Origin: a virus
Length of the DNA stretch: 64,000 nt
Reading direction: 5' to 3' (one strand)
IMG/VR virus record: IMGVR_UViG_3300034066_002191
Shown: positions 32,314 through 33,823 of the stretch, piece after piece
Numbering within the stretch: position 1 is the stretch's first letter
Layout: the number at the start of each line of letters is the position of its first letter
The notes under the pieces: generated by a model
Told to the model about the DNA's origin: nothing
Seen by the model: only the letters and a program-made list of their open reading frames with translations
The model's database searches: none
Made by a program: the position numbers and the translations under genes

Positions 32314-32646
32314 ATGAAGGAAGAAGACCTCAACCAAAAAGACAATTCCCAGAAATCATCAGATTCATCCGAAGACCTGCCAAGCGTGGTAGGAAAAAAG
32401 CACGGTTCATTATTGAATAAACTTATTTTTGTAATCTGTTGTGCTGTAATTGGATTTGTTGGAATCAACTTCATTGCTTGCAATTTTATGGTCCCAGGTA
32501 CAATCAATAGTGCTAATGTAAAAGGAGATCTAAAAAATCCCCCTCCTTTGGACTGCAAAGAATCCGAAAGAAGGGGATACGAAACACTTTTGACAATTTT
32601 AACTACAGTGATTGCATTGAGAACTAAAGTCGAAGATAGCGATTAA
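32314..32646 (+). CDS. Two-TM membrane protein (holin-like candidate)
   Basis: Two hydrophobic segments; convergent with and overlapping the lysozyme stop. Confidence 0.5.
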   Translation: MKEEDLNQKDNSQKSSDSSEDLPSVVGKKHGSLLNKLIFVICCAVIGFVGINFIACNFMVPGTINSANVKGDLKNPPPLDCKESERRGYETLLTILTTVIALRTKVEDSD

Positions 32647-33128
32647 GACATCCAGAGTTTTCCTTCCGCAGTTCTTCTTCTTGCCAATCCAACTTCAACT
32701 TTAGTTCCAGGATTACGATAAAGATAAAGAGCATCAGGTACTTTATCCCATTCTTTATTCTCCAGAACTCTGGTTATAGTATTAAAATTAGAAGATCCGT
32801 AGAAGCGAGCACCCAAATTATAACTAAAACTCAAAAGTGCTCCTTGTTGATTTTCATTCATTTCACTCCAATGTGGGATTCTTTGTAAGTGCGGAAGAAA
32901 TCTTTGTTCAATATCAAAGATTAAAAGTTTATCGGCATACTCTTGAGTAATTTTTTTTCCTATCTTAAATGGTTGTCCATTAAAATCTTTAGTGCTTCCC
33001 CATCCAATAGTAATTGGCAATCCTCCCGTTAATGGGTCTGGATAAGCGTTTAAATGACAACCCTCAAACTCCTTTATTAATTCAATACCAACTAACGAAA
33101 CATTATTAGGGTTAGTTGGCGTTTCTAC
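32643..33128 (-). CDS. GH24 lysozyme domain, probably expressed as a -1 frameshift fusion with the upstream gene
   Basis: LIKEFEG..L.AYPDP..G.LPITIGWG (E-D-T triad), ALLSFSYNLG, GLARRRTAE; first in-frame ATG is downstream of the catalytic residues. Confidence 0.88.
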   Translation of the reverse strand, partial: VETPTNPNNVSLVGIELIKEFEGCHLNAYPDPLTGGLPITIGWGSTKDFNGQPFKIGKKITQEYADKLLIFDIEQRFLPHLQRIPHWSEMNENQQGALLSFSYNLGARFYGSSNFNTITRVLENKEWDKVPDALYLYRNPGTKVEVGLARRRTAEGKLWMS

Positions 33129-33157
33129 TTTTTTGCATCGAAAATTCTTCCCCACCC
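33087..33157 (-). promoter_or_regulatory. Programmed -1 ribosomal frameshift signal
   Basis: GGGUGGGGAAG, 12 nt, in-phase A_AAA_AAG (33134..33128), UAG, 7-nt spacer, stem GCCAACUAAC/GUUAGUUGGU. Confidence 0.8.
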
Positions 33158-33823
33158 ATCATTACCTTTTGGAACCCACCTACGAGAAAGATCAGTTCTC
33201 TTATAGACAGCACCCTTACCATTAGTTACTGCACCAGTATAACCATCATTCAAACTCCCAAATGGATCATTAACAACATAATCACCACTAGGTGTTTTAC
33301 CAATCACAACTACCATGTGTCCTCCTGTGGGGTTAGATATAGGACCGCGATGAAGAATGCCAATAACAACAGGTCTATCAGCGGCAAGCTCTCTATCAAG
33401 ATCAGCAAAAGTAAGGCTGTAGGAAAAACTGGATTTAATGCCATATGACGCAAGAACCTTAGTCTGAACCAAGTGATCAGTGGTGTCACCGATTGAGAAA
33501 ACTTTTTGTACATAGGCATCGTCGCCTTTATCTCCTTTTAGTGTACCAGGTTTGAAATACTCAAGGCACATCGCACAGGCAGAAGAGTTGCAAGTTCTAT
33601 TTGCATCTCTATAGTTATCTGTCTGTGGATAGAAAGGAACAGGTAAAATTGATGATTTAGGTTTGTCTTCTTTAGTTCTAAAAATTCTCACCCAATTTGC
33701 ATTATCTTGTATCAACTCTTGTGCTTTCAGTTGCAAATCTTTTTCAAGTTGTTCAACCGCTGCAACATGCTTTGGATTTTTTTCATCATAAAACTTAAAA
33801 AAGTTATGAAGATCTATAAGCAT
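33125..33823 (-). CDS. Peptidase C39-like (papain-fold) protein
   Basis: VPFYPQTDN.....RTCNSSACAM, GGHMVVVIG, VVNDPFG (Q/C/H/D). Confidence 0.85.
   Translation of the reverse strand: MLIDLHNFFKFYDEKNPKHVAAVEQLEKDLQLKAQELIQDNANWVRIFRTKEDKPKSSILPVPFYPQTDNYRDANRTCNSSACAMCLEYFKPGTLKGDKGDDAYVQKVFSIGDTTDHLVQTKVLASYGIKSSFSYSLTFADLDRELAADRPVVIGILHRGPISNPTGGHMVVVIGKTPSGDYVVNDPFGSLNDGYTGAVTNGKGAVYKRTDLSRRWVPKGNDGWGRIFDAKK

Follow-up and report, generated by a model that had tools for sequence, protein, structure and literature searches.

The subject of this work is a gene on the minus strand of a 64,000-nucleotide stretch of viral DNA (IMG/VR record IMGVR_UViG_3300034066_002191, hereafter the window), in which an open reading frame (ORF) for a C39-like cysteine peptidase ends at a slippery sequence and a GH24 lysozyme is encoded directly afterwards in the -1 frame. 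The window comes from a T4-like cyanophage, with psbA, hli and petF genes nearby, and its best DNA matches are to the Kyanoviridae at ~74% identity, none of them being identical. The 0-frame ORF (33125..33823) encodes a protein of 232 amino acids (aa), made up of the peptidase and, in front of it, an N-terminal helical module (residues 1-52; 33668..33823) that would be common to both predicted products and is a candidate dimerisation domain. The 3' end of this ORF reads GAT GCA AAA AAG TAG, where the heptamer A_AAA_AAG (33128..33134) is in phase with the C39 frame and the TAG stop (33125..33127) lies directly 3' of it. After a 7-nt spacer comes a predicted frameshift-stimulating hairpin (33087..33120) with a 10-bp stem (9 Watson-Crick pairs and a G.U) and a 14-nt loop. 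When the G of the heptamer is read a second time, the -1 frame (32643..33128; 161 codons and a stop) begins GTA GAA ACG..., giving the linker V-E-T-P-T-N-P-N-N, and runs stop-free through the lysozyme to 32643; the predicted trans-frame product would be 232 + 161 = 393 aa long.

A sequence-only reading of the window had proposed that this gene makes a peptidase and a peptidase-lysozyme fusion by a programmed -1 frameshift, and its description of the junction is borne out as regards the in-phase heptamer at 33134-33128, the stem 7 nt beyond it and the linker that leads into the lysozyme. The stem pairs CCAACUAAC (33119-33111) perfectly over 9 bp with GUUAGUUGG (33096-33088), to which G33120.U33087 is added, and the hairpin folds with -12 kcal/mol (z -4.5; 1 of 200 shuffles as good). 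Other parts of that reading fared less well. The G-rich run upstream of the heptamer, taken there for a stimulator resembling a Shine-Dalgarno (SD) sequence, consists of the codons for the invariant GWGR motif and is a poor match to GGAGG; since the same run occurs equally in stand-alone and in-frame homologues, which do not frameshift, nothing can be attributed to an SD-like element. Neither 'late' expression nor a 'fixed ratio' of the products is supported. The statement that no ATG precedes the lysozyme is literally correct, but a start codon does exist in the form of a GTG (33153..33155), which lies 21 nt upstream of the heptamer, opens the -1 frame there and could serve as an independent start.

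Peptidase, lysozyme and N-terminal module

Residues 60-187 of the C39-like ORF match Pfam PF13529 (Peptidase_C39_2) with 49.3 bits against a cut-off of 24 (E 1e-12). The AlphaFold model of the protein (predicted local distance difference test, pLDDT, 78.6) has a papain-like/C39 fold, and its top Foldseek matches (E 2e-6 to 3e-4) are Alr0975, the C39 domain of PCAT1, the C39-like structure 3ERV and PeiR; among these nearest folds Alr0975 is a gamma-glutamyl-cysteine peptidase and PeiR a pseudomurein endoisopeptidase. A sequence search of the PDB, made both with the single sequence and with a profile, gave zero matches. Q67, C83, H169 and D186 are the same in all 27 homologues compared and occur in the order expected for Gln/Cys/His/Asp catalytic residues, which makes them the candidate active site. 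The C39 domain was found in 106 cyanophage records, 45-kb podoviruses included, and as most of these are annotated as lysozyme or endolysin, a role as an endolysin is a sensible reading of the gene.

The -1 frame matches PF00959 (GH24) over the whole profile (positions 1-125 of 125) with 80.1 bits against a cut-off of 22.3 (E 2e-22), in agreement with the complete lysozyme domain of the sequence-only reading, and the catalytic E/D/T pattern can be read in the translation as EFEG...YPD...TIGWG. In 62 sequences with a synonymous divergence (dS) of ~1.4, the ratio of nonsynonymous to synonymous substitution (dN/dS) is 0.16 for GH24 and 0.11 for C39, with zero internal stops in GH24; the -1 frame is under purifying selection and is a real coding sequence. 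Both parts are moreover colinear with PHROG 3617, a 405-position family of single ORFs in which the C39 ORF matches positions 1-235 and the -1 part positions 247-404, and the linker of the in-frame relatives (...DAKVEE...) aligns with the trans-frame sequence ...DAKKVE....

A two-copy model of the 232-aa ORF scored 0.61, against 0.01 for the best control. In a calibration set the mark of 0.61 was attained by 20 of 30 proteins whose solved structures are one-chain pairs and by 1 of 23 whose structures are single chains; these counts apply only approximately because the dimer model relied on an alignment made for this work. Contacts agreed to at least 81% between runs, pLDDT was at least 83, and the interface is confined to residues 1-52. 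The model suggests that the N-terminal module mediates dimerisation, supporting such binding without showing it. In phage DSL-LC02, the C39 protein and the GH24 protein are separate and each is headed by this same module. Given its place on both predicted products of the window and on both DSL-LC02 enzymes, we infer that the short and long forms may be able to pair. Between the two module-bearing genes of DSL-LC02 (L004:1494-3195) there is also a small, secreted-looking ORF.

The junction in related phages

Junctions were classified in a sample of 105 IMG/VR loci gathered with the C39 proteins of the window and of phage S-CAM7. Among the 51 unique junctions with GH24 in the -1 frame, 48 carry in-phase NNA AAA AAG, one lineage carries U_UUU_UUU, and the remaining two (L045 and L075) have no heptamer, their lysozyme having its own ATG in an ATGA overlap; each of the 51 thus has a slippery site, a start codon or both. 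In L075 (2185-2801), the GH24 coupled in this way lies behind a different N-terminal module. Conservation among homologues, to which the sequence-only reading had looked as a check, speaks for the proposed signal: the heptamer is identical and in phase in all 48 unique junctions of this A6G type, the adjacent stop is kept (TAG or TAA directly after the heptamer, or one codon later), and the stems covary. In most frameshift-type sequences the -1 frame is shut by a TGA (within TTT GAT) that lies 3 nt before the heptamer; as the 0-frame stop follows, the heptamer is left as the only place at which the frame can change. This closure is also the reason why GTG 33155 is not conserved, and in 27 of the 48 A6G-type junctions the -1 frame contains no ATG, GTG or TTG before the catalytic EFEG. 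As negative controls, 18 stand-alone C39 genes, which end in ...GWGRVFQP or similar before their stop, have no heptamer, and it is missing in 8 of 9 natural in-frame C39-GH24 fusions.

The constraint appears to act on the RNA rather than on the protein. Across the 48 unique coding sequences, the amino acid is conserved in 140 columns, only 4 of which are restricted to one codon, and Lys codons elsewhere in the gene are divided between AAA and AAG as 501:268. The codon before Lys-Lys is GCA in 24 sequences, GTA in 20, ACA in 3 and GAA in 1, such that the residue varies (A, V, T or E) while the third base is always A. Frozen codons within the heptamer, together with a changing residue but a constant A in front of them, argue for selection on the heptamer itself.

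Cultured phages illustrate the range of architectures. In S-PM2 the junction reads GCA AAA AAG followed by TAA, its 9-bp stem (AGCUCUACU/AGUAGAGCU) is unlike that of the window, and the -1 frame offers no ATG, GTG or TTG before the lysozyme. S-CAM7 has GUU UUU UUU CCA CAG UAG, with an in-phase U_UUU_UUU, an 8-bp stem (GUAGAACC/GGUUCUAC) 5 nt downstream and no start for the lysozyme. In S-SRM01 the heptamer is followed by one more codon and by a TGA overlapped by the lysozyme's own ATG, and the structure is weak. ACG-2014f has an ordinary in-frame fusion of 405 aa, in which a separate lysozyme start is not needed, and S-CREM1 encodes the two domains in reversed order, GH24 then C39, in one ORF. 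The ACG-2014f fusion (KJ019148; L006:2028-2062) is the only in-frame lineage to keep an in-phase GCA AAA AAG; it has a 7-bp hairpin 6 nt past the heptamer (-9.9 kcal/mol, z -2.8), and its -1 frame meets a TGA at once. A shift there would give a C39-only product in the manner of dnaX, although the heptamer in this phage may be a matter of chance.

The hairpins are of at least four sequence classes, namely CCAACUAAC/GUUAGUUGG (class B, that of the window), UCAACACCACA/UGUGGUGUUGA (class A), CUCUACUCC/GGAGUAGAG and AUUCC/GGAAU, and the stems of every class begin 2-8 nt past the heptamer. In class A (19 sequences) 96.6% of cells are paired, against only 30-47% in slid controls, 5 of 14 pairs show compensatory double changes, and 0 of 500 shuffles were as good. 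Class B (14 sequences) is paired in 96.4% of cells with compensatory changes in 3 of 10 pairs, and its covariation score was matched by 3 of 500 shuffles. When the 60 nt past the heptamer were folded, 38 frameshift-type junctions without their own start had a median minimum free energy of -16.1 kcal/mol (z -3.3), compared with a median z of 0.0 for 8 in-frame fusions and of -0.7 for 10 junctions with their own start; the difference in z between the first group and the in-frame fusions is marked (Mann-Whitney p = 3e-8), albeit among sequences that are not independent. Strong structure thus goes with the need to frameshift. Class A also offers an H-type pseudoknot candidate: ~18 nt beyond the stem, the codons for EFEG contain UGAGGGAU, to which the loop AUCCCUCA is complementary (alignment A4, columns 34-41 and 69-76; e.g. 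L014:2190-2268); it is 95.8% paired, with one-sided (wobble) changes only and no double compensatory change. In the window itself a pseudoknot of AACCCU with AGGGUU was considered and rejected, as it overlaps stem 1 and is not kept within its stem class.

On a tree of C39 sequences (103 rows), the A6G type is scattered through a large clade to which freshwater and estuarine isolates belong. S-CAM7 and the other U_UUU_UUU sequences form a clade (support 99) nested within one of in-frame marine fusions (support 100), which indicates a second origin of a -1 site, with another heptamer and a hairpin of its own. Stem classes do not track this tree, the window (class B) being placed near L009 (class A); the junction therefore seems to be a recombination boundary, with the heptamer surviving the exchange.

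Probable frameshifting and the competing explanations

The mechanism that we favour runs as follows. Ribosomes on the C39-like ORF would come to A_AAA_AAG, their P and A sites both occupied by tRNA-Lys, and would there be slowed by the hairpin 7 nt downstream. Most would stop at the adjacent TAG and release the 232-aa protein of N-terminal module and peptidase, while a fraction would slip back one base, read the GH24 lysozyme and yield the 393-aa peptidase-muramidase. Both products would share the helical module that is predicted to dimerise, making homodimers and heterodimers likely. The comparative evidence supports the two products of 232 and 393 aa that the sequence-only reading had predicted, and in our judgement the gene probably encodes a cyanophage endolysin and is read by programmed -1 ribosomal frameshifting of the dnaX/IS3 type. 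That the ribosome and not RNA polymerase slips, how efficiently it would do so, the pairing of the products and their part in lysis are what we infer beyond the conserved signal. A_AAA_AAG shifts especially readily in E. coli when AAA and AAG are both read by one tRNA-Lys (PMC5009743). Synechococcus WH7803, the host of S-PM2, gave 43 tRNA matches, and in its 34 class-I tRNAs, all of which were read, the sole tRNA-Lys has the anticodon UUU, CUU being absent; the 7 phage tRNAs in the window include no tRNA-Lys.

Several points weigh on the other side. The tRNA-Lys comparison was made on the host of S-PM2, which may not be that of the window's phage, and the fusion product and its ratio to the short form are putative. 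A fold of 75 nt in the window gives an alternative structure of -13.3 kcal/mol that competes with the hairpin. Across 66 ORFs of the window in-phase A_AAA_AAG occurs 8 times, against 8.9 expected from synonymous shuffles, so this test of heptamer avoidance, which is low-powered, comes out neutral to slightly negative. As it is not depleted, the heptamer alone may be only weakly shifty in the host, and as it is not rare, the case rests on its position at the junction and its conservation in relatives. In the window ORFs of at least 100 aa, in-phase A_AAA_AAA is depleted by the same kind of shuffle (11 observed, 24 expected), as is U_UUU_UUA (0 observed, 4.3 expected); U_UUU_UUU is not. To these points must be added the homopolymeric nature of the slip sites (A6 and T8), the window's own GTG 21 nt upstream, and 11 relatives of the S-SRM01 type in which an ATG, GTG or TTG overlaps the TGA one codon past the heptamer and the hairpins are weak (z -0.7); in some lineages reinitiation may contribute.

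The homopolymers are what slippage of RNA polymerase would need: an extra A (a U in S-CAM7) added during transcription would let some mRNAs encode the fusion in frame, and the same two proteins would result. Runs of this kind are present at the sites (A6 in the window, A7 in L036, T8 in S-CAM7), the scarcity of in-phase A_AAA_AAA suggests that long A runs are costly, and rare genomic A7 variants exist. Efficient slippage by bacterial RNA polymerase, however, is known for runs of ~9 or more bases, as in Thermus dnaX, and A6 is shorter than this. The conserved and covarying hairpins, moreover, lie 5-8 nt downstream, where ribosomal stimulators sit, whereas downstream RNA cannot act on the polymerase, and the terminal G, the exact phase and the adjacent stop, all of them conserved, are ribosomal features. 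We consider transcriptional slippage unlikely. It is less probable still that there are simply two genes, with the lysozyme initiated at GTG 33155 or through termination-reinitiation, and with the heptamer being no more than the codons of a conserved Lys-Lys. The S-SRM01-type relatives, the GTG itself and the truly separate genes of L045 and L075, coupled by their ATGA overlap, agree with such an arrangement, but these last two, the clear separate-gene lineages, are the very ones that have lost the heptamer. The GTG that the sequence-only reading had raised as a possible independent start is indeed present in the window, yet is not conserved, the -1 frame usually being shut 3 nt before the heptamer, and the 27 start-less relatives have nothing from which to initiate before the catalytic Glu; nor would two genes account for heptamer codons that are frozen at synonymous positions while the preceding residue varies. 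Independent initiation or reinitiation fits only the S-SRM01-like subgroup and possibly the GTG of the window.

We give very little credence to the view that the junction is an artefact or a sign of decay, whether a homopolymer error in sequencing or assembly, an A6/A7 polymorphism in the population, or an in-frame fusion that has recently become a pseudogene. It is true that 4 contigs (L068, L071, L078 and a further match) have A7 and the same stem, with the fusion in frame, and the marine relatives include natural in-frame fusions. A pattern scan of IMG/VR that allowed A6 or A7 nevertheless returned at least 120 loci and, among the matches listed, A6 in 117 of 120 independent contigs and A7 in 3 (82 unique contexts versus 1). 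Both S-PM2 records carry A6 and three S-CAM7 isolates carry T8; this agreement of resequenced isolates rules out the extra A by which the sequence-only reading might have failed, and the frameshift is not a sequencing error. Decay is likewise at odds with a GH24 dN/dS of 0.16 without internal stops, and with the maintenance of heptamer and hairpin over the same dS of ~1.4. The A7 contigs L068 (2187-2254), L071 and L078 (2187-2254), which read GTA AAA AAA GTA G and form a single in-frame ORF with the stem kept, are nested among A6 relatives on the C39 tree. They may be real reversions or homopolymer errors, and with A_AAA_AAA in phase a -1 shift in them may still yield a short product.

Beyond programmed frameshifting as such, it is conceivable, though we put this forward only tentatively, that the gene is a recoding-controlled endolysin, in which a shift that evolved at least twice sets the ratio of peptidase-only to peptidase-muramidase protomers and both dimerise through the N-terminal module. 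If this were true, the amount of muramidase, and perhaps also when lysis sets in, would depend on the state of the host translation machinery, and abundant freshwater, estuarine and marine cyanophages would possess such an enzyme. Were the efficiency of the shift to respond to host physiology, it could link the translation state of cyanobacteria to burst timing.

Known systems, annotation and neighbouring genes

The mechanism is of a known kind. OrfA/OrfAB of the IS3 family (IS911, IS150) likewise has A_AAA_AAG, a nearby 0-frame stop and a downstream stem-loop, and its shift also extends a short product into a two-domain fusion with a shared N-terminus; the IS3 product, however, is a transposase rather than a phage endolysin, and the supposed upstream SD-like enhancer is unsupported here. 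With tau/gamma of E. coli dnaX the gene has in common the heptamer, a single tRNA-Lys(UUU), a stem-loop a few nt downstream and a common N-terminus, but the dnaX shift truncates the protein at an immediate -1 stop, whereas here it would add a whole catalytic domain. Phage tail chaperone G/GT and T7 capsid 10A/10B are conserved cases of -1 recoding in phages that give two proteins, one short and one long, with the same N-terminus and set the product ratio; unlike the present gene, in which a lysis enzyme would gain an enzymatic domain, they are structural or assembly genes with different heptamers.

Among endolysins, CTP1L, CD27L and Lys170 use an internal start, by which one gene gives the full-length protein together with a shorter form; the two have a domain in common and assemble with each other. 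In those enzymes the shared part is the C-terminal wall-binding domain, in contrast to the N-terminal module and peptidase that frameshifting would leave in common here. The single-ORF cyanophage fusions, C39-GH24 (ACG-2014f type, PHROG 3617) and reversed GH24-C39 (S-CREM1, PHROG 10051), have the same domains as the window gene, but they are ordinary in-frame genes in which the heptamer occurs only in ACG-2014f and which, as a group, have no unusual downstream structure. A full-text literature search found no published account of this site or of any frameshift-built cyanophage endolysin; PRFect does cite, as a frameshift case, an older lactococcal lysin said to be specified by two genes that overlap. 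What is new is that the mechanism serves to add a catalytic domain to a lysis enzyme, that it arose twice within a single gene family, and that a spectrum of alternative gene architectures surrounds the site. The lysis enzyme thereby joins a short list of phage gene classes with conserved -1 recoding, and a family in which a single gene occurs in in-frame, frameshifted, coupled, split and reversed forms, along with two independent slippery sites, offers a natural comparative series for the rise and decay of frameshift signals.

Lysis genes of T4-like cyanophages are poorly defined, and a probable endolysin is now identified for S-PM2, S-CAM7 and many uncultured relatives. S-PM2 is a model phage with the same frameshift signal, unannotated until now. 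Existing database entries are wrong, giving either 72-aa 'lysin' fragments that lack the catalytic Glu or two separate 'endolysins'. In GenBank the lysozymes of S-PM2 and S-CAM7 are annotated as 72-aa fragments that start after this Glu, and the S-PM2 and S-CAM7 records examined contain no joined coding sequence (CDS). The 72-aa 'putative lysin' or 'lysin' CDSs begin at an internal ATG (NC_006820 116499-116717, S-PM2p157; KU686213 158770-158988; MT586120 158149-158367), and the lysozyme coding region behind them truly begins at the frameshift site.

In the records KC310804 (37611-38152) and HM559717 (podovirus S-CBP4), the C39 match falls in two pieces that are unannotated or labelled 'hypothetical protein', and this may be another interrupted endolysin gene. 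Within the window, a convergent 110-aa ORF on the plus strand (32314-32646) ends where the lysozyme stop lies. A 54-aa ORF precedes the C39 gene, and upstream of it a pattern scan found a terminator-like hairpin (34022-33992, minus strand) with the loop CUAAAUA. Matches to the N-terminus of D1 (psbA) were also seen in contigs of metagenome-assembled genomes labelled Opitutales, Yoonia, Bordetella, Gammaproteobacteria and Rhizobium (L113, L123, L129, L131 and L155), which are probably mis-binned cyanobacterial or cyanophage contigs.

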